This document shows positions 13,128-42,973 of a stretch of DNA of 46,199 nucleotides, piece after piece (the first letter of the stretch is position 1; each line of letters opens with the position of its first letter). A program made the position numbers and the translations under genes. Origin of the DNA: an uncultured Ignavibacteriales bacterium (lineage in GTDB: Bacteria; Zixibacteria; MSB-5A5; GN15; JAAZOE01); NCBI GenBank assembly GCA_964611355.1, contig CAZSYD010000015.1, positions 1 to 46,199 on the forward strand. The letters run 5' to 3'. The notes beneath the pieces are model-generated. The model worked only from the letters and a program-made list of their open reading frames with translations, was not told where the DNA came from and did not search any database.

Positions 13128-13139
13128 TATTACAATACT

Positions 13140-13167
13140 GCCCGGCGGATGGAAATATCCGCCGGGC
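13140..13167 (+). terminator. Inverted repeat after crt (probable terminator stem)
   Basis: Perfect 11-bp stem GCCCGGCGGAT-ggaaat-ATCCGCCGGGC; the sequence following it is cut by the N gap. Confidence 0.5.
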
Positions 13168-13173
13168 GCTTGC

Positions 13174-13273
13174 NNNNNNNNNNNNNNNNNNNNNNNNNNN
13201 NNNNNNNNNNNNNNNNNNNNNNNNNNNNNNNNNNNNNNNNNNNNNNNNNNNNNNNNNNNNNNNNNNNNNNNNN
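13174..13273. other. Assembly gap (100 N)
   Basis: Run of exactly 100 n, typical of a scaffold gap of unknown size. Confidence 0.98.
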
Positions 13274-13831
13274 CCGCTTTTGACGGTCAATATCGCCGAA
13301 GCGACCCGTAAAGGTTTTTGGGCCGGGCCGATCCTGACCGGCGGGCACGCCGTCGCCGAATTGGGGGTGGTTGTTGCGCTGGCGTTTGGATTGTCCGAAC
13401 TTCTTGCGTCGGAGAAAGTTTTCCAGGTCATAGGCATTGCAGGCGGCATCGCCCTGATTCTTATGGGCGCGGCGATGACCTACGATATTATTCGGAAAAA
13501 GATTACGTTCGACCCCGATCAACCCGGTTCGGGTTCCGGGCTTTTGGTCGGCAAAGGTATCACCGCTTCGCTTTCCAACCCGTACTGGTTTGTCTGGTGG
13601 GCGACAATCGGGTCGGCTTTTTTGTCCAAATCGCTGGTACACGGTGCAATCGGGCCGGTGATTTTCTATTTCGGGCATATCATGTCGGATCTTGTCTGGT
13701 ACGGTTTTGTCTCGTTTCTTATTTCAATCGGTAAAAAACTTTTGGCCGGGCGGCCGTATTATATTCTTATTTCACTCTGCGCCGTGTTTCTTATTTACAT
13801 TGGCGTGAAATTTATTATCGACGCCCTGTAA
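13274..13831 (+). CDS. LysE/RhtB family translocator, 5' end lost in the gap
   Basis: Reads PLLTVNIAE...GHAVAE...SLSNPYWFVWWATIG...GHIMSD, a LysE-type hydrophobic pattern. The usual N-terminal ...PGP motif would lie in the gap. Confidence 0.85.
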   Translation, partial: PLLTVNIAEATRKGFWAGPILTGGHAVAELGVVVALAFGLSELLASEKVFQVIGIAGGIALILMGAAMTYDIIRKKITFDPDQPGSGSGLLVGKGITASLSNPYWFVWWATIGSAFLSKSLVHGAIGPVIFYFGHIMSDLVWYGFVSFLISIGKKLLAGRPYYILISLCAVFLIYIGVKFIIDAL

Positions 13832-18165: not shown

Positions 18166-18708
18166 ATGAAAAAATTCCGGTCGTCAATAAACGGTATTAT
18201 ACTCGTAACGGCAGTTATTCTGCTTCTTTCCAACTGCGGCGGGGATAGTTCATCCGAGACTGAATCGGCCAGCCAAACGGGAAAAGTTGCAACCGCCCGG
18301 ACGAGAGATAAATTTATCCTTTATGATATCCGCGGCAATCAGCGGAAGTGGTCGGAATTTATCGGCCGGCCGTTTATTATAAACTTCTGGGCAACCTGGT
18401 GCGGCCCCTGTCGCAGCGAGATGCCGCTGCTGAAAAAGATTTACGAAGAGTACCATCCGCAGGGACTCGAAATTATAGGTATTTCCATCGATCATCAGCG
18501 GAACAGGGTTGCCCCGTTTGTGGAGCAATTTAAGATACCGTACGTGATTCTTTATACTGATAATAACGCGCCCAGGAAGCTCAAGCTGGGGCAGGGAATA
18601 CCGATGACTATTTTCTTTGACGCCGAGGGGAACGAGACAGGCCGCATCGTCGGCGCCCAGCCGCCGCAGGTTTTCTATAAAGAGGTAGAGAAATTATTCG
18701 GTTCCTGA
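18166..18708 (+). CDS. TlpA/ResA family thiol-disulfide reductase, probable lipoprotein
   Basis: INFWATWCGPCRSEMP, GIPMT, and lipobox-like LSNC. Confidence 0.92.
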   Translation: MKKFRSSINGIILVTAVILLLSNCGGDSSSETESASQTGKVATARTRDKFILYDIRGNQRKWSEFIGRPFIINFWATWCGPCRSEMPLLKKIYEEYHPQGLEIIGISIDHQRNRVAPFVEQFKIPYVILYTDNNAPRKLKLGQGIPMTIFFDAEGNETGRIVGAQPPQVFYKEVEKLFGS

Positions 18709-19839
18709 ACAGGAATTATTAGCTTTATTGCGAATATTGAACCGGCTTGCGGACCGGTTTTCAATTCGGGTTTCCTTTTCATCCCTGGATAATAACGCTT
18801 TTGTTGCAAGAGGGTCGGGGTCGGCGATTGACCTGAGATATCCTGCCGGTGCGGCGGCGGCATCATCGGCCGGGAGGTTGTTGTTACTGCAAAGGAAGCT
18901 ATAGATTACACAAGGTTTTCTGACCGATTCGCGAGCCCATTCAAAACCGCCGATTGCCAGCAAAGCGCATAAAAGCAGGATAGCGGCCGAGATATATCCG
19001 GAACGGCGCGGGAAGATTATCGTCCCCAGCAGGGTCAGAAGAAAAAGAATGGCCGAGGAAAAGAGCATCACCTGCAGGGCGGTCGCAGGCGTCGAGCCGG
19101 GGATAAAGCCGGCGGCGACATCTTCGGGCAGAGAATTGAAATACCACAATCCGGCCGGAATCGCCAGAATAAGCGACGCCAGTATCAGGATTCCGTTTAT
19201 TCGCATAATCCGAATCTTGAGATCGAGTTTCTTTTCTTTGGCGATAATTAAATTGGCAAAGAGACCGGCAAGGATAAGACAGATAAATATTCTGAATATC
19301 AGCGACGGCCAGTAAACCGGCTTGAAAAAGCCTTCCCAAAAACCGCCGCTTTCAATCCATCCGCCCGCTGTGAGTGTGAAAGTCAGAATGCCGTTGATAA
19401 TTGCCAGTAACAACAAGGCGGCGGCAAATAAAATCCAGCCGACGGCCAGATGCGTTTTGGGCGACATCCGTCTCCAGCCATAACAATAAATAATGGCGGC
19501 GACAATAGCGACGAAGAAGAAAAGCCACAGAGCAATCCAACCCCAGATGAAGCCATTAATCAACAACTTGACGCCAGTCGGGTGGATCAAATAAGCGGTC
19601 ATCCAGGTACCGATGGCGGTTACGGCGCCAGAGACCAGCGTAACCAGGATAAAAAACCGGCAATGCTTTTCAATACAGGCCAGGTGGTCCTGGTCGTTTT
19701 TACGGCGAGCCCGGATTTCGGATAGGACAAGATAAAGCCCGCCGCCGATGGCAAAGTGTGACACGAAGACGTGCAATATGGCCATGATAGCGATCAGGTT
19801 GCTGTTGCCCATAAACGGCTCCAAAACAGGATAGATCAT
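18694..19839 (-). CDS. Cytochrome bd subunit I (CydA)-superfamily membrane protein, divergent and short
   Basis: N-terminal HVFVSHFAIGGG, INGILTF, FWEGFFKP.YWPS and C-terminal FEWARESVRKP resemble CydA-like proteins; about 9 TM helices. SD AAGGGG. The 3' end overlaps the TlpA gene by 15 bp. Confidence 0.75.
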   Translation of the reverse strand: MIYPVLEPFMGNSNLIAIMAILHVFVSHFAIGGGLYLVLSEIRARRKNDQDHLACIEKHCRFFILVTLVSGAVTAIGTWMTAYLIHPTGVKLLINGFIWGWIALWLFFFVAIVAAIIYCYGWRRMSPKTHLAVGWILFAAALLLLAIINGILTFTLTAGGWIESGGFWEGFFKPVYWPSLIFRIFICLILAGLFANLIIAKEKKLDLKIRIMRINGILILASLILAIPAGLWYFNSLPEDVAAGFIPGSTPATALQVMLFSSAILFLLTLLGTIIFPRRSGYISAAILLLCALLAIGGFEWARESVRKPCVIYSFLCSNNNLPADDAAAAPAGYLRSIADPDPLATKALLSRDEKETRIENRSASRFNIRNKANNSCSGTE

Positions 19840-19865: not shown

Positions 19866-20285
19866 TTACTTAAACACTTTTCTAAAGTAAACGATTTCCG
19901 ACCATGCCTCGTAACCGCAATGGCGAAAGGCCGCCATCGATGGAAAATTATTTTCCTCAACCAGAGCCGCGATAACCTTGACACCCATCTCCGACAGCGC
20001 CTCTTCCGCCTTTTCCACGAGCCGGGCGGCCAGACGCCGCCCGCGATAATCCGGGTCAACGGCCAGCCGGTTGATCCATCCTTTACGGCCATCGGAACTG
20101 GCGACAATCGACCCGATTATCCGGCCTTTATCCTTGAGAGTCAAAATCGCCACATGGTCGTCGAATATCTGTCTTTCGATCGATTCACGGCTATCCCGAT
20201 CAGCCCGGTCATAAGAAAGGCCGGTTCGTTCCCAGAGGGACAGCATCTGATCGTACTCATTGATTCTGAAAGATTCAATCTCCAT
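19866..20285 (-). CDS. GNAT family N-acetyltransferase (YpeA-like)
   Basis: DGRKGWINRLAVDPDYRGRRLA acetyl-CoA binding motif and N...AFRHCGY. Confidence 0.9.
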   Translation of the reverse strand: MEIESFRINEYDQMLSLWERTGLSYDRADRDSRESIERQIFDDHVAILTLKDKGRIIGSIVASSDGRKGWINRLAVDPDYRGRRLAARLVEKAEEALSEMGVKVIAALVEENNFPSMAAFRHCGYEAWSEIVYFRKVFK

Positions 20286-20532: not shown

Positions 20533-23500
20533 TTGACTGAACAGGAACTATACAGGATTATCCAGCGGGCAAAGGAGTTCGAGTGGAAGACTCTTGATCT
20601 GTCCGGTGAAGGATTGGAATCTCTGCCTGATGAGATCGGCGGCCTAACTACGCTCACCCAGCTTATTCTGGATAACAATAATCTCGAATCAATTCCTGAC
20701 AGTATCGGAAACCTGGTAAACCTAAACCATCTCAACCTGAATAATAATCACCTGGATTGCCTGCCCGATTCAATAGGCAACCTGATATATCTGACACACC
20801 TCTCGGCGGAGAAAAACTATCTGGCCTTGCTGCCGTATTCTATCGGGAATCTGGGGAATCTGTCCCGGCTCAGCCTGAACGAAAATCATCTTGAGTCTCT
20901 TCCGGACAGCATCGGCAAATTAACCGGCCTGATTCAGCTTGGTTTAGATAACAACCGGCTCGTTTCTCTTCCGGAAAGTATAGGCTTTTTAACCAGCTTG
21001 AGCCATCTTGGTCTGCGCAGTAATCAGCTTACCTCCCTGCCCGATAGTATAGGAAGGATGGTAAGCCTGACCACCCTGTCAGCCGATAGCAATCGGCTGA
21101 CCGCTCTGCCCGACAACATTGAGAAGCGAACGGGCTTGACCGGACTGTACCTGTCCGGAAATCAACTGAAGTCTCTTCCGGAAAACATCGGCAGGCTGGT
21201 CAACCTGGTTACTCTTGATCTGAGTAATAATAAGCTTGCCTCCCTGCCGGAATCGATCGGAAAGCTAAAAAAACTCAGGGGATTCCGGTTGAACAACAAC
21301 CCGTTGGACGGCCTGTCGCCGGATGTTGTTGCCGAAGGCGGCGAGGCCGTTTTGGAATATTATCGCGAGTTGAAGCTGGGCCGGGCAAACAGATATGAGG
21401 GACAACTGATAATAGTCGGGGACGAGGGCGTTGGAAAAACCTGCCTTACCGGAGCGCTCTGCGGGGAACCGTTCAGGGAGCAGCAACCGACCTGCGGTGT
21501 AGAGATCAAAACACGTTCCGAAAAACATCCGGAAAATCCCGAAGAGGTGCTGTCAATCAATATCTGGGATTTCAGCGGCCGCGAAAGCAGCCGTCCGTTT
21601 CTTCAGCGATTCTTTACGCGGCGGGCGCTTTACCTTCTTGTCTTTAACGCTCGCCTGGAAACCGACCCCGATCACCTGTTTTCATGGCTTGATATGATAA
21701 GGTCACGGGCACCCAAAGCCCGGGTTCTGCTTGTCGCCACACAATGCCGGGATCACTGCCCAAAACTTGATTTTGAGCGGCTCACGGAACACTATAAGGA
21801 TATCATCATCGGGGATGATTTTTACCGCGTCGATGCGGATACTAATACGGGTATCGATCAGTTGAACAGGGATATCGGCAAATATATCTGGAACCTGGAG
21901 ATAATGGGACGTAAATGGCCGAAATCTTTCGCTGACGTCGTAAAAGAGATTGAACGCCGCACGGCGAAGGGCGAGACCTGCATAGAACGAAATAAGCTTT
22001 ACCAGATAATAGGCAACGCGGGTCTGGATGGTTTACGCAACCGGGAAATGCTGACCAGCGTCCTGGCCGGCATTGGCAAAATTATTCATTTTCCAAACAG
22101 TTTCGATCTTGGCGATCTGATTATTATAAACCTGCAGTGGTTGATTCGCGCGCTCAGCCTTGTTTTTGACCGGGAAGAGTTGCCCGCGGAAAACGGCCGC
22201 CTGAATCATCAAGGCCTGACGGAGATCTGGTCAAAAGATTATCCCGACCAACACGATCTTCTTATGCGCTGTCTTGCGGAACTGGAATTGTGTTTTCCGC
22301 TCATGGATTATCCCGGCTTAAGCTTGGTGCCGTTGCATTTACCGGCCGCCAGACCGGAGAAAATAGAATGGACCGAGCAACCCGGCTCAATAACTCGCCG
22401 TTTGACTTATCGTTTTTCCCGTATTCCTCCGGATATCATGCCCCGGTTCACAGCCAGGACCCGCCGGATGGCTACCGGTATATTCTGGAAAAACGGCGTT
22501 TTCCTGAGAAAGGGTCAGGCCGAGGGGCTCTGCGAACTGTGCCCCGAAAGACATGAAATAGTAATCGAGGTGCGTTCGGTTTACCCGTTGAATCTTCTCG
22601 AAAGGCTTGGCGAATATCTTGAGGCCATCCTTGATAAGTATAAGGGGCTTAAGTACCAGAAACTGCTGGGCACCATCGGCGAGGTAACGGTCCTGGCGCC
22701 GGGCTCGCCCGGCAATGCCGGAGAAAAATCGGAAGACGCCATGCCGGGAGGGGTTGATAGAAGTCTGAGCGATTCCGACAAAAACCAGGTTGACGCCCTT
22801 GACCTCGTCTGCGGCTTAAAGGAGTTTACCACTCACTTGGATGTTCTTAAGTCGATCGAAGACAGCGCCAACAAGACTCTGGAGGAGACGCGTCCCGTCA
22901 AAGATTCCGTAATCGCTACCAGTAGAAAGCTGATTGAAATGTACGAACATCAGCAACGGGTTTTTATGGATTGGATGTGGCGTACGGATAAAGAGATTTT
23001 CGAGCAATTTCCAACCCTTATAACAATTATGCCAACCAGCACCCACCGCGTCAAACCGGCTCACTGGGCAGATCGAATATACCAACTCAGCCTTTGTTGC
23101 CAGGCGGAGGACGGCATCCACCCGGTCGGCGAAATATACGAATTCAAAAGATCCCTGGAATGGTGGCAAAGGATATATCCTTATTTGATTCACCTGCAGC
23201 CTATACTCCGGGTAGTCGGCGGCCCTACCGGGCAGATGCTTCCCAGCTACCTGCCGGGGCGGTTATGGCGACGCACAAAAGGCGAATTCGAGGTCATGAA
23301 CGGGTGGCTTGATGAGATCGACTTGCCGACGCTCGATCCCCGCAAAACCGAAACCGCCAGGCAGGATGATATGTTGGAATCGGAGGATATAACCATTAAA
23401 GCGATATCTTCTCTTATCGGTGAGGTTGATAAGCGAAACTCATGGAATGATCGCCTGACCAAAGTCTCTATGCCGGGCGGCAAGATTCTCTGGCTATGCG

Positions 23501-23613
23501 ATATGCATCTTAAGAAATACCTCTCCCACGAAGTCGGGTTTGAGAACAAGGCGCAAAAAAAGCCGGGTAAAACGGAAGTTTTATCCGGCCTTGCAGCTTC
23601 GCCAAAAAACTAA
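20533..23613 (+). CDS. Prokaryotic Roco protein: LRR-Roc GTPase-COR plus C-terminal domain of unknown function
   Basis: TTG start after AGGGA. About 11 LRRs of 23 aa. P-loop GDEGVGKT, G2 PTCGVEI, G3 IWDFSG, FFTRRALYLLVFNAR, WLDMI..RAP, VLLVAT. COR-like IIHFP...LIIINLQWL and FWKNGVFL. Confidence 0.9.
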   Translation: MTEQELYRIIQRAKEFEWKTLDLSGEGLESLPDEIGGLTTLTQLILDNNNLESIPDSIGNLVNLNHLNLNNNHLDCLPDSIGNLIYLTHLSAEKNYLALLPYSIGNLGNLSRLSLNENHLESLPDSIGKLTGLIQLGLDNNRLVSLPESIGFLTSLSHLGLRSNQLTSLPDSIGRMVSLTTLSADSNRLTALPDNIEKRTGLTGLYLSGNQLKSLPENIGRLVNLVTLDLSNNKLASLPESIGKLKKLRGFRLNNNPLDGLSPDVVAEGGEAVLEYYRELKLGRANRYEGQLIIVGDEGVGKTCLTGALCGEPFREQQPTCGVEIKTRSEKHPENPEEVLSINIWDFSGRESSRPFLQRFFTRRALYLLVFNARLETDPDHLFSWLDMIRSRAPKARVLLVATQCRDHCPKLDFERLTEHYKDIIIGDDFYRVDADTNTGIDQLNRDIGKYIWNLEIMGRKWPKSFADVVKEIERRTAKGETCIERNKLYQIIGNAGLDGLRNREMLTSVLAGIGKIIHFPNSFDLGDLIIINLQWLIRALSLVFDREELPAENGRLNHQGLTEIWSKDYPDQHDLLMRCLAELELCFPLMDYPGLSLVPLHLPAARPEKIEWTEQPGSITRRLTYRFSRIPPDIMPRFTARTRRMATGIFWKNGVFLRKGQAEGLCELCPERHEIVIEVRSVYPLNLLERLGEYLEAILDKYKGLKYQKLLGTIGEVTVLAPGSPGNAGEKSEDAMPGGVDRSLSDSDKNQVDALDLVCGLKEFTTHLDVLKSIEDSANKTLEETRPVKDSVIATSRKLIEMYEHQQRVFMDWMWRTDKEIFEQFPTLITIMPTSTHRVKPAHWADRIYQLSLCCQAEDGIHPVGEIYEFKRSLEWWQRIYPYLIHLQPILRVVGGPTGQMLPSYLPGRLWRRTKGEFEVMNGWLDEIDLPTLDPRKTETARQDDMLESEDITIKAISSLIGEVDKRNSWNDRLTKVSMPGGKILWLCDMHLKKYLSHEVGFENKAQKKPGKTEVLSGLAASPKN
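20593..21306 (+). repeat. Tandem leucine-rich repeats (69-nt / 23-aa period)
   Basis: Consensus LxxLxLxxNxLxSLPxSIGxLxx repeated about 10 times plus a capping NNNPL repeat. Confidence 0.92.
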
Positions 23614-24146
23614 AAAGCCTTTTTGTCACGCTCGTCTTTGCGTGCTTCCGCCTTGATTGTTTTAACTCTAATACGTTCGATTCCGGCCCTGGCCTCGGAA
23701 AGACCTGGATTCATTTTCAGAGCGCAGGCATATTTTTCGCCGGCCTTGTGAAGATACCCTTCCTTTTCCCAGCTTACACCCAGAACATAGCTTAAACAGG
23801 CGAGAGTCACGTTGTCCGATGGACAGAATTTCAGACTGTTGTTAAATGATCCGATAGACCGGTCATAACGTCGTGTCTTCTGCTGGCAAAGTCCCAGGAA
23901 GTAGTGAGCCTCCCAATTCTTAAAATCATTGGATATTGCCCGGACCAGGTGCTTGATCGCCTGGTTATGCTTCCCCTTAAAATACAAGGCCTTGCCCTGT
24001 TCAAGATGATTATTCGCCGCGACCGCCTGGCTCTGGACAAAAGCCAGAGACGCTTCATCCGCCGGATTCGTCTTGATAGTCGTGGTTTTACTTCCGCATC
24101 CGGCGACTAAAGAACCAATTATAAGCAAATATATAAATCTGCGCAT
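23610..24146 (-). CDS. TPR-repeat lipoprotein
   Basis: Lipoprotein signal MRRFIYLLIIGSLVAG-C; three TPR-like units (HLEQGKALY..., EAHYFLGLC..., LSYVLGVSW...). Stop overlaps the Roco stop by 4 bp. Confidence 0.85.
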   Translation of the reverse strand: MRRFIYLLIIGSLVAGCGSKTTTIKTNPADEASLAFVQSQAVAANNHLEQGKALYFKGKHNQAIKHLVRAISNDFKNWEAHYFLGLCQQKTRRYDRSIGSFNNSLKFCPSDNVTLACLSYVLGVSWEKEGYLHKAGEKYACALKMNPGLSEARAGIERIRVKTIKAEARKDERDKKAF

Positions 24147-24219: not shown

Positions 24220-24360
24220 GGCAACCGGGGTTAATCCGGGGTAGAATCGGTTTGACCTGATTAATTTTTGAGCAGGAAATCTTTGAATTTGGCGATCCTG
24301 CTAAGGAAAGACGTCAGACTTTTAGGAATAATAACTTACTATCCCGCCCTTGAGAGGTAA

Positions 24361-29712: not shown

Positions 29713-31863
29713 TCAGTCGAATATTCCCAGTTCCGGAATTTTCCCACCGTCGGCGTCAATGCCTATGCCGAAATTGTTATGTCCGTAATTTGAATCCGAT
29801 TTTTCGGGAGTAAACCAGATTGTGTTGTCTTTCATTTTTTCCGATGCGGCAGTTTTAGCTTCTTCCTTTATAAGATAATTATCGGTACCGGAAGCGTCGA
29901 TAAAAATCCCGGCCGATTTGGTGTAATAGTCATAAGTGCGGAGTTCGCTCGGTTTGGTGTAAATGTCGCGAAACGAAGCCGCGCCGAATCCCTGCTGGCC
30001 TTTTGCGTATGTATAGCTGTCGGCCCCGCCCATCTCGAAGAAAAACGCAAACGACCTTATCTGGGCAAGTCCATACGATATCATCTTCGCTTCATATTCG
30101 TCGTTGCCGCCGCGGTCGACGAAAAGGGCATTGGTAAAGTCCCAGCCAAAAGCAAAGGCCGCCCCGGCGGTTTCATACAAAATATGTTTGTCGTCGCCGG
30201 ATTCATCAATTAAAGCCCCGTTGCAGAAATGCGCACCGGATGCCTGGGTGAAATAGACCGAACGGTAGACATCGTCGCCGGCTTCGTCATAGCAGATGCC
30301 GGTGCCGAACCAGTACCCGCATCCCAGCGACCAGTTTCCTGATTCGTAAACGTCGTTTCCGCAGATATCGACAATTACGCCCAAACCGCCCGCCCAGCTA
30401 TGTCCGTCGGAGCCGTCGCCGCGCCGGCCGAACCCACATCCCTGGGCGCTGTTGGCGTTTATTTTGAATTGACTGTGGTAATCGGCCCGGTTGACAATCT
30501 CCGGCGACGGTTCCGCCATGTATTTATCATCTCCCGAATAATTGGCCAGGCAGCCGACTCCGCCGCCAACGCCGCCCATACCCTGGCCGTCGCCGTAAAG
30601 GTAGTAGCTGTCATCACCGGCGCAATCGATGGCCAGACCTATTCCAAAGTATCCGGCTCCCTGCGACGACGTTTCGGATTTATAGTCGTCGCTTCCGCTT
30701 TTATCAAAAAGCATCCCCAGTCCCAGAAATCCGGCCCCCTGAGAAAACACTTTCCCCTCATATCGGTCCGAACCGGCGGCGTCATATAAGAGTCCAACGC
30801 CCAGGATACCCGCGCCGAACGAGGGCGTCATGTTTTCGGATTTATAGATGTCGTTTCCTTCGAGATCAATCAGAACCGAGACGCCGTGCCCGGGGCGCGA
30901 TGTCGCTCCAGCCGAACCGGTGTAGCTGTCATCACCGCCAAAATCTATTATCAAAAGACAATAGTCGCCGTTTACCTGATTGTCGCCGCGACCGTTTATT
31001 ACCACCCGGCCGTACGGCGTGATAAAATCGAGCGCGAAATCGCGGGGAACATCCTTCAGCAAAGGCGTCAGTTCCTTTTCTGCGCGTTCAGCGGCGGCGG
31101 CGACTTTCAAGGTCGCATAACAGACAGATTCAAAATCGACGGCCTGGGCGGCATCGTCGATTTCGGGATAATATTTCATGCCGTCGCCCTGCGTTTCGGC
31201 CAGATCGCGAATGTAGAAAACCCGGTTAATGATTTCGCTCGGTATATTTCGTACGCCAAGATTTCGCCAGTAAATCGCCTCACGCAAATTTTCCATCAAC
31301 CCGGCCAGGGCAAGGCGAACCGGACGCCGAAGGGTTGCGATTTTTTCCGATAATTCTTTTTTCAAATCAGGCCAGTCGGCCTTTTGATTAAAAGTAACGT
31401 ATTGCATTTTTCCGCCGGCCATGATGTAGAGATTTTCGACGGCACGAATAAACGGCCGCTCGCCGCCCGGAGCGTCAACCAGATTGGCCCCGTATGAACG
31501 AAAACCGCCCGTTTTCCGCTCAATGCCCAGATGGTAAACCAGATTGTAAAGATTGTTATCGGCGCTGTCGAGCCCGGCCGGATTGCAATACCGGCGCACT
31601 GCGCCGCCAAACGAGCGGGCGTAATTATAAAGGCTAATCGGCTCGGCGTAAAGATCGTCAAATGATTTCAATTTATATGGTATTCCGGTCGGGAACCTGT
31701 TCCAGTATCCTTTGGGCCGGTAACCGAGGTCGGAATATGTGTATCCAATCGAATCGAGCGCTGCCTGAAGCAGGTTAACACCGTTTTGATCGATATTATC
31801 TTCCGCCGGCCCGGTCGCCGACAGACCGAGCAGAAACATTCCGCAAATAATTAATCGCCGCAT
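29713..31863 (-). CDS. Secreted hypothetical protein with about 12 Gly/Asp-rich D-x-x-G-[DNS]-D-x-Y repeats
   Basis: Signal peptide and SD GGAG. Repeats such as IDFGGDDSY, IDLEGNDIY, FDKSGSDDY, IDCAGDDSY and YDEAGDDVY alternate with SQGAG..G.G segments. Confidence 0.85.
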   Translation of the reverse strand: MRRLIICGMFLLGLSATGPAEDNIDQNGVNLLQAALDSIGYTYSDLGYRPKGYWNRFPTGIPYKLKSFDDLYAEPISLYNYARSFGGAVRRYCNPAGLDSADNNLYNLVYHLGIERKTGGFRSYGANLVDAPGGERPFIRAVENLYIMAGGKMQYVTFNQKADWPDLKKELSEKIATLRRPVRLALAGLMENLREAIYWRNLGVRNIPSEIINRVFYIRDLAETQGDGMKYYPEIDDAAQAVDFESVCYATLKVAAAAERAEKELTPLLKDVPRDFALDFITPYGRVVINGRGDNQVNGDYCLLIIDFGGDDSYTGSAGATSRPGHGVSVLIDLEGNDIYKSENMTPSFGAGILGVGLLYDAAGSDRYEGKVFSQGAGFLGLGMLFDKSGSDDYKSETSSQGAGYFGIGLAIDCAGDDSYYLYGDGQGMGGVGGGVGCLANYSGDDKYMAEPSPEIVNRADYHSQFKINANSAQGCGFGRRGDGSDGHSWAGGLGVIVDICGNDVYESGNWSLGCGYWFGTGICYDEAGDDVYRSVYFTQASGAHFCNGALIDESGDDKHILYETAGAAFAFGWDFTNALFVDRGGNDEYEAKMISYGLAQIRSFAFFFEMGGADSYTYAKGQQGFGAASFRDIYTKPSELRTYDYYTKSAGIFIDASGTDNYLIKEEAKTAASEKMKDNTIWFTPEKSDSNYGHNNFGIGIDADGGKIPELGIFD

Positions 31864-42298: not shown

Positions 42299-42538
42299 AG
42301 TTATCTCCGTCTTTTACGATACTCTCTAATACTTGCCGTCCTGCAATATTCTCTACGAACCGAGGACGATATTGTTTCGTAACCGATTTGATTACCTACC
42401 TCGTCGGACAGTCGGCAAATGAATTTGTTGCAGTCTAATTATATTTGACCGCGCAAAAAGCTAAACGGTTGCCAACCGGAATAATTGCGATGACTCTTGA
42501 CGCTTGCCTTACACAGAAAAACTGCGTACCATTATGCT

Positions 42539-42973
42539 ATGATTCACAAAAAAGTAATCGTAGCCGGGCTGGCGGCCGGGGTATTATGCCACATCTTCCA
42601 GGGAGCGGCGGCTTATCTTTTCTTCGACCGATTCTATCTGGAAAATCCCGACCTGATTCGCGATTCCAGTCGGTTGGTCGGTTTCTATTACCTGGCGCTT
42701 AGCCTGATTGTCGGGTTGGTCATCTCCTATCTGGCCTATTACTTGAAATCGGTTTGGAAAGGCGTCGATTGGATAGCGGGAATCAGGGCCGGGATGATTG
42801 TCTGGGTCGCCTCATCGCCGGTGTTTATTATTAAAAGGCAGATAATATTTAATTTGTCGAACTGGCTGCTTCTGGAAATCGCGGCTGATTTCCTGATATA
42901 TATTATCATAGGAGCAGTGGCCGGATTTCTATCCGGCCGGGGAATAATCGAGAACACGAAGGAGAAATCATGA
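42539..42973 (+). CDS. Hypothetical membrane protein (4 TM)
   Basis: Four hydrophobic segments; stop overlaps the next gene's ATG (ATGA). Start chosen at ATG 42539. Confidence 0.75.

Follow-up and report, generated by a model that had tools for sequence, protein, structure and literature searches.

The Roco gene and its domain layout

The DNA analysed here (the window) is a stretch of 46,199 nucleotides, positions 1 to 46,199 of the forward strand of contig CAZSYD010000015.1 (GenBank assembly GCA_964611355.1), from an uncultured Ignavibacteriales bacterium with the GTDB lineage Bacteria; Zixibacteria; MSB-5A5; GN15; JAAZOE01. At 20533-23613 on the forward strand, an open reading frame (ORF) with a TTG start encodes a 1026-residue Roco protein, in which leucine-rich repeats (LRRs) are followed by a Roc GTPase domain, COR-A, a partial COR-B, a 51-residue helix and a C-terminal domain (CTD) of about 180 residues. 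The gene, its parts and two neighbouring genes are listed below.

20533..23613, +, Roco gene (LRR-Roc-COR-helix-CTD), 1026 aa, the only Roc or COR gene found in its own genome (G000)
20533..20583, +, N-terminal cap ahead of the repeats, aa 1-17, predicted to be helical
20584..21342, +, LRR array of 11 repeats of 23 aa, aa 18-270, likely sensor
21397..21897, +, Roc G-domain, aa 289-455, P-loop GDEGVGKT and switch-I Thr320 retained
21565..21615, +, eroded G3/switch II, WDFSGRESSRPFLQRFF, aa 345-361, Arg350 at the Ras Q61 / LRRK2 R1398 position, family TH dipeptide gone
21736..21753, +, eroded G4, ATQCRD, aa 402-407, Arg406 in place of the family Asp
21919..22332, +, COR-A, aa 463-600, Pfam match
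22399..22656, +, N-terminal part of COR-B, aa 623-708, Pfam match
22657..22827, +, eroded C-terminal cysteine knuckle of COR-B, aa 709-765, Gly/Pro-rich, aligning with the CtRoco dimer element 892-940
22834..22986, +, predicted 51-residue helix, aa 768-818, from an AlphaFold2 model
22993..23541, +, unnamed CTD, aa 821-1003, near-invariant Cys856, His863, Cys989 and His992 forming a predicted zinc site
23610..24146, -, TPR lipoprotein gene, 178 aa, lipobox LVAGC, core in the family and convergent with the Roco gene
19866..20285, -, GNAT acetyltransferase gene, directly after the TPR gene in 9 relatives lacking a Roco gene, marking the insertion slot

Membership of the Roco family is clear from the succession of Roc (aa 292-405, 71.9 bits), COR-A (aa 463-600, 78.3 bits) and COR-B (aa 623-727, 43.6 bits), all above their Pfam cut-offs of 27, 35.3 and 27, behind N-terminal LRRs as in the prokaryotic group. 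The initial annotation had proposed LRRs, Roc, COR, a linker and a further C-terminal domain arranged as sensor, NTPase and output, and this layout is borne out, with the helix and CTD seen in the model. Its COR assignment stands with the qualification that the COR-B match covers profile positions 5-103 of 145 only, and its Roc assignment with the qualification that the motifs are non-canonical, an erosion it had missed. The expected absence of a signal peptide, and hence a cytoplasmic location, also holds, as neither a signal peptide nor a transmembrane helix was found (maximum 19-residue Kyte-Doolittle mean 1.56, threshold 1.6). The closest PDB chains by sequence are the prokaryotic Rocos 4wnr, 3dpu, 6hlu and 8r4b (E 4e-24 to 3e-21), with LRRK2 next. 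The protein shares the LRR-Roc-COR core of Chlorobium tepidum CtRoco (3dpu, 6hlu, 8r4b) and archaeal-type 4wnr, and its P-loop, DxxG and DSR-type arginine align with theirs, whereas the CtRoco tail is unlike the CTD and the profile match ends in the linker. Unlike human LRRK2, the Parkinson's protein, it lacks kinase, WD40, ARM and ANK domains. The combination of a repeat sensor, an NTPase and an output domain in one chain works like that of the NLR/STAND receptors (PMC8195603), but here the sensor is N-terminal and the NTPase is a Ras-like Roc rather than a STAND ATPase, a Pfam scan giving no NB-ARC or NACHT match in the 1026-residue protein.

Erosion of the GTP switch

Of the features of a canonical CtRoco-like switch, Roc retains the P-loop (GxxxxGK[ST]), switch-I Thr320, and Asp346 and Gly349 of DxxG, together with Arg374, while the G4 aspartate, switch II and the COR-B dimer element are altered. 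In an alignment with 55 other full-length CTD-type Rocos, of which 2-6 rows are gapped at the switch sites, Arg350 stands where 45 of 55 rows have glutamine, Phe-Leu replaces a Thr-His dipeptide (Thr in 41 and His in 45 rows), and Arg406 occupies the position of a G4 aspartate present in 37. Of the 15 consensus residues of switch II behind DxxG (Q-x5-TH-Q-FF), 8 are kept; missing are the Gln, Tyr, Thr, His and one Phe. Among CTD-type Rocos from named genomes (80 loci, 65 full-architecture copies, 61 parseable), a set biased towards one subclade by the search motif, the glutamine is found in 61/61, TH in 59/61 and the G4 aspartate in 56/61. Arg374 aligns with the residue that we take to be the DSR arginine of CtRoco. 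A catalytic role of the DSR arginine in CtRoco has been described (PMC6337361).

These losses are a property of a lineage rather than of one protein. Seven proteins (P0002, P0003, P0004, P0161, P0006 from genome G006, P0007 and P0167) form a clade with an SH-like approximate likelihood ratio (SH-aLRT) support of 96 in a quick tree, and in none of the seven is an acidic G4 residue or the (S/T/A)H dipeptide present; the G3 glutamine survives in one and the equivalent of Arg374 in two. The P-loop lysine is kept in 7/7 and the switch-I threonine in 6/7, the copy without it being that of G006. In the seven-member sister clade, the glutamine and (S/T/A)H are kept in 7/7 and a G4 glutamate in 6/7.

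The second eroded element lies at the C-terminal end of COR-B, where 52 of 53 other rows carry a knuckle of 3-5 cysteines. Here the knuckle is a Gly/Pro-rich stretch that keeps one of seven consensus residues, with no knuckle cysteine in register, compared with four to five of seven in the sister clade. It is deleted in P0004, and P0006, P0007 and P0167 retain three cysteines. Two CtRoco segments, 520-533 in switch 2 and 892-940 in COR-B, are ordered as long as the protein is a nucleotide-free dimer, and disordered in the monomer with GTP bound (PMC11052575). By alignment, with a five-residue offset set by H554 and Y558, 520-533 corresponds to aa 351-364 of the present protein and 892-940 to about 713-765, so that the two eroded segments are those that would hold the off-state dimer together. 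Since G3/switch II, G4 and the COR-B dimer element are all eroded, a switch function for this copy appears doubtful; of the sensor/switch role given in the initial annotation, the Roco identity and layout stand and the switch is in question.

Several observations weigh against so strong a reading of the motif losses. Divergence is general across the protein, with 12 of 28 consensus residues kept in COR-A and 17 of 26 in the CTD. G4-G5 vary among Rocos (PMC6337361), and the G3 glutamine is missing in half of 20 UniProt Rocos (PMC13345514). A one-residue gap in the pairwise CtRoco alignment can place Asp407 on the G4 aspartate. This copy still retains Arg374, Thr320, Asp346 and Gly349, and the 61-protein comparison set is skewed to one subclade by its search motif. 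A literature search in an incomplete library, with bioRxiv supplements outside it, found no paper on eroded bacterial Rocos; the eroded-switch Roco clade and an LRRK2-like arginine in a bacterial Roco are new here.

That arginine invites a different interpretation. DFSGRE in the present protein aligns with LRRK2 DFAGRE, placing Arg350 at R1398, the Q61-equivalent site. Among 20 UniProt Rocos an arginine at this site was reported for LRRK2 only and proposed to act as a gamma-phosphate sensor (preprint PMC13345514), a restriction to which the aligned sequence of this protein provides a bacterial counter-example. The GTPase could accordingly be active but rewired, with Arg350 reading the gamma-phosphate, Asp407 replacing the G4 aspartate and the helix or CTD replacing the COR-B dimer surface, and the retention of the P-loop, Thr320, DxxG and Arg374 fits such a scheme, as does the arginine common to P0002, P0003 and P0004 and recurring in P0007. 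The seven members of the eroded clade, however, have R, R, R, E, T, R and Q at this position, and even P0007 and P0167, at 75% identity, differ there; the arginine is therefore not fixed, and drift probably accounts for Arg350 better than an LRRK2-like mechanism, the likeness probably being convergent. The G006 copy also lacks the switch-I threonine, and in the family alignment Asp407 falls one column past the G4 aspartate. On this evidence a rewired GTPase is unlikely, for all that the DFSGRE match speaks for it.

The C-terminal domain as a candidate output module

An AlphaFold2 model of aa 750-1006, built from an 81-sequence alignment (mean predicted local distance difference test score, pLDDT, 85; predicted template modelling score, pTM, 0.75), consists of a helix at aa 768-818 followed by an alpha/beta domain at aa 821-1003. 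No Pfam match for the CTD was found across 81 aligned members and no match in NCBIfam, PADLOC or the PDB; a fold search gave no name either, and the literature search, in its incomplete library, returned no paper describing the domain. Four of its residues are nearly invariant, Cys856 (151/152), His863 (152/152), Cys989 (144/146) and His992 (144/145), all of which are present in 7/7 proteins of the eroded clade. Their positions suggest a structural zinc site linking both ends of the CTD around a helical hairpin.

The domain is widespread. A search with the CTD matched 167 cluster representatives, and Roc or COR lies upstream in 105 of 153 proteins examined (a number that includes the query twice), the remaining 48 being mostly short fragments. 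A motif scan of named genomes gave 203 confirmed CTD stretches, the best 80 of which come from cyanobacteria, Chloroflexota, Planctomycetota, myxobacteria and others. Twelve CTD proteins were flagged as unusual: the domain follows a receiver domain in two (P0102, P0145), a kinase with vWA in one (P0111) and TPR in one (P0106), and it precedes TIR in one (P0143) and WD40 in one (P0135); no further family was found in the other six. Among P0061, P0152, P0100 and P0024 are CTD-type Rocos with a fused NB-ARC, Hsp70 or Ser/Thr kinase domain, as well as an LRR-COR-B-CTD protein with no Roc or COR-A match. In a Streptosporangiaceae genome, a CTD-type Roco (L073, 1707-8672) is 2322 residues long and contains 66 matches to the LRR motif.

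The initial annotation had regarded the C-terminal domain as an effector, and the output position that this implies is retained. A toxic effector of abortive-infection type, either a membrane-acting helical hairpin or a Cys/His enzyme, would be in keeping with the variable C-terminal position, which in related Rocos bears TIR, transmembrane or other domains (PMC8195603), and the central helices are moderately hydrophobic, reaching a 19-residue hydropathy of 1.6 in 43 of 148 homologues. Such a toxin is nonetheless improbable, given that TIR or WD40 lies downstream of the CTD in some proteins, that others are ordinary receiver-domain fusions, and that few polar residues besides the Cys/His set are conserved (the family Arg956 is Lys or another residue here). 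An eroded off-switch would, moreover, demand some other restraint on a toxin. As the CTD stands behind three kinds of switch and ahead of TIR, we prefer an adaptor or clustering module, which fits the domain at least as well as a terminal toxin.

Our favoured model, offered tentatively and with somewhat less than an even chance of being right, is of a switch-less, monomeric cytoplasmic sensor whose LRRs signal to a zinc-stabilised CTD adaptor. The Roco gene sits on the opposite strand between a conserved pair of TPR-lipoprotein and GNAT genes. Its lineage has lost the G4 aspartate and distal switch II, and this branch the COR-B cysteine knuckle as well; because of these losses, GTP-driven cycling between dimer and monomer has likely been abandoned and the protein is likely monomeric. 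A foreign or stress protein would be the ligand of the LRRs, and its binding would shift the long helix, exposing or clustering the CTD, while the retained P-loop would still hold a phosphate group or nucleotide in a structural role. A bolder formulation, possible if rather doubtful, is that of a pseudo-GTPase Roco clade, intact over deep divergence, that has shed both off-state dimer elements and whose LRRs signal via the long helix to a zinc-stabilised CTD of undescribed fold, itself a portable output or adaptor module of hundreds of bacterial Rocos, response regulators and kinases. If true, the GTP cycle would be dispensable for Roco function and this copy would be a natural bacterial Roc carrying the Arg1398 of LRRK2. 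A natural series of Roc domains, canonical with Gln, TH and Asp, intermediate with a G4 Glu, or eroded, all joined to the same CTD, would probe the need for GTP turnover. The CTD, as a common and confidently folding domain, would give a handle on Roco output, and the arginine at the R1398 position a small bacterial comparison for a mechanism claimed as unique to LRRK2.

Insertion site, neighbourhoods and persistence

The Roco gene converges on a TPR lipoprotein gene, the two ORFs sharing 4 nt (23610-23613, CTAA) tail-to-tail; the TPR gene likely starts at the ATG at 24146 (178 aa), not at the TTG at 24224. All 13 further genomes of the family have the TPR gene. In nine of them GNAT is the next gene, with nothing in between; in two (G006, G005) a Roco gene stands at the 3' end of the TPR gene, and in two the contig stops there. 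With the TPR-GNAT pair unbroken in nine of the 11 informative relatives, the Roco gene has therefore been inserted between two genes that were already neighbours. In G006 and G005 the Roco and TPR genes do not overlap; 21 nt and 121 nt, respectively, separate them. The assemblies of G005, G007 and G012 break at or just beyond the 3' side of the TPR gene, and GNAT was not found in these three.

The pairing with the lipoprotein gene noted in the initial annotation is real at this locus, stop overlap included, and mostly fails as synteny. Of 160 genomes in the order, 14 carry a total of 16 COR-A genes and 91 have a TPR match, and only 4 of those 91 TPR-holding genomes have a Roco gene beside the TPR gene. 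Of the 11 Roco genes in TPR-holding genomes, four are adjacent and seven elsewhere; no TPR match was found in the flanks of the order's other five. The four adjacent Rocos (4/16) belong to three lineages, 25-27% identical to each other's group. Those of G000, G006 and G005 lie tail-to-tail with the TPR orthologue, the G000 and G006 proteins sharing a clade and that of G005 lacking the CTD and grouping with that of G003; in G183, a genome of another family, the Roco gene lies upstream and co-oriented, and its protein is 25% identical. This unrelated canonical CTD-type Roco (L057, G183:C136, 4232-10135) sits between pantothenate-kinase-like and TPR lipoprotein genes that are adjacent in seven other genomes of the G183 family.

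The arrival of three such divergent lineages beside TPR orthologues might reflect a functional pair, with an envelope-stress or guard relation bringing Roco genes to this slot again and again. We consider this very unlikely. The adjoining Roco is missing from 87/91 TPR genomes, G004 carries a CTD-type Roco elsewhere with its TPR-GNAT pair unbroken, both TPR flanks take other insertions (a squalene-synthase-like gene and a 1280-aa gene), and in G005 the Roco gene may have taken the place of an earlier insert. The membrane also separates a lipoprotein from a cytoplasmic protein. For the most part the link is one of position, and the lipoprotein gene next door is probably no partner of the Roco; the slot may be read as permissive, which does not fully explain three Roco lineages there.

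A role in defence has been predicted in print for the whole class: section 15 of Kaur et al. 2021 (PMC8195603) predicts a counter-invader role for the LRR-AP-GTPase-COR proteins of prokaryotes, whose C-termini comprise 24 or more domains. Both the Roco architecture and the immune hypothesis are thus already published. The present protein resembles those systems in its LRR, AP-GTPase, COR and variable domain, in patchy single-gene spread and in interchangeable C-termini. It differs in its CTD, for which Pfam has no match although it may be among the 24 or more, and in its eroded switch, of which that section describes none. In this order Roco genes are scattered, each inserted singly and with C-termini that vary, which fits the counter-invader prediction. 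The defence reading of the initial annotation accordingly keeps its published basis, but the neighbourhoods lend it little support. PADLOC gave no match for the 1026-residue protein, and housekeeping genes surround its gene. In 45 CTD-type loci (the 80 less 34 redundant, mostly cyanobacterial, and one without a called CTD ORF), PADLOC at 1e-15 matched 10 of 133 neighbours in 8 loci, several of these neighbours resembling relatives of housekeeping genes, in a survey with no control. Nostoc copies lie among recurring core-looking genes, and the literature search in its incomplete library found no paper on a tested anti-phage Roco.

Two Rocos of the order lie in defence- or mobile-looking settings (L143 4759-14319 in G156, and L149 in G018), one near a restriction-subunit-like gene and one among recombinase- and conjugation-like genes, as read from N-terminal sequence. 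Other Roco tails noted include DUF218 after a COR-B cut at about 50 residues, in an ORF that runs off its contig (L035 2-2152, G026), and a membrane segment matching Pfam MCU, the mitochondrial calcium uniporter, at 40.9 bits, above cut-off (L007 832-3252, G003). Genome G003 also has three WD40-Roc-type proteins (L009, L011, L012), one with an N-terminal TIR and a C-terminal DUF4365.

The Roco gene is intact, single-copy, accessory and maintained. Contigs of ~90% identity from four runs cover the locus, two spanning most of the gene, with no indel listed within the ORF. Six salt-marsh metagenome runs contain half or more of the window's sampled words, and one of these may be its source. The gene evolves faster than its neighbours, with DNA divergence from the ~90% relatives of about 9.8% compared with about 7% in the ATP-grasp region; at exposed LRR strand positions, 33 of 45 residues are identical to P0003, compared with 143 of 162 elsewhere. 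That rate, the knuckle deletion in P0004 and the COR-A scores, the lowest two of 28 in the phylum being those of G006 and G000 (the present protein second-lowest), could suggest a formerly mobile defence gene decaying under relaxed selection, which is highly improbable given full-length proteins across 33-51% identity, the indel-free ORF and the CTD Cys/His set kept in 7/7.

Elsewhere in the window, three ORFs gave no Pfam or NCBIfam match (29713-31863, -, 716 aa; 13130-13678, -, 182 aa; 42497-42973, +, 158 aa), and 32249-33475 matches the PopA-family porin model below cut-off. The cytochrome-bd-like gene at 18694-19839 (-) encodes 381 aa, compared with about 497-500 aa in relatives, and the next membrane gene of ~362 aa is missing; a ~90% relative carries 1671 extra letters at 18677-18691, which looks like a recent deletion in G000.

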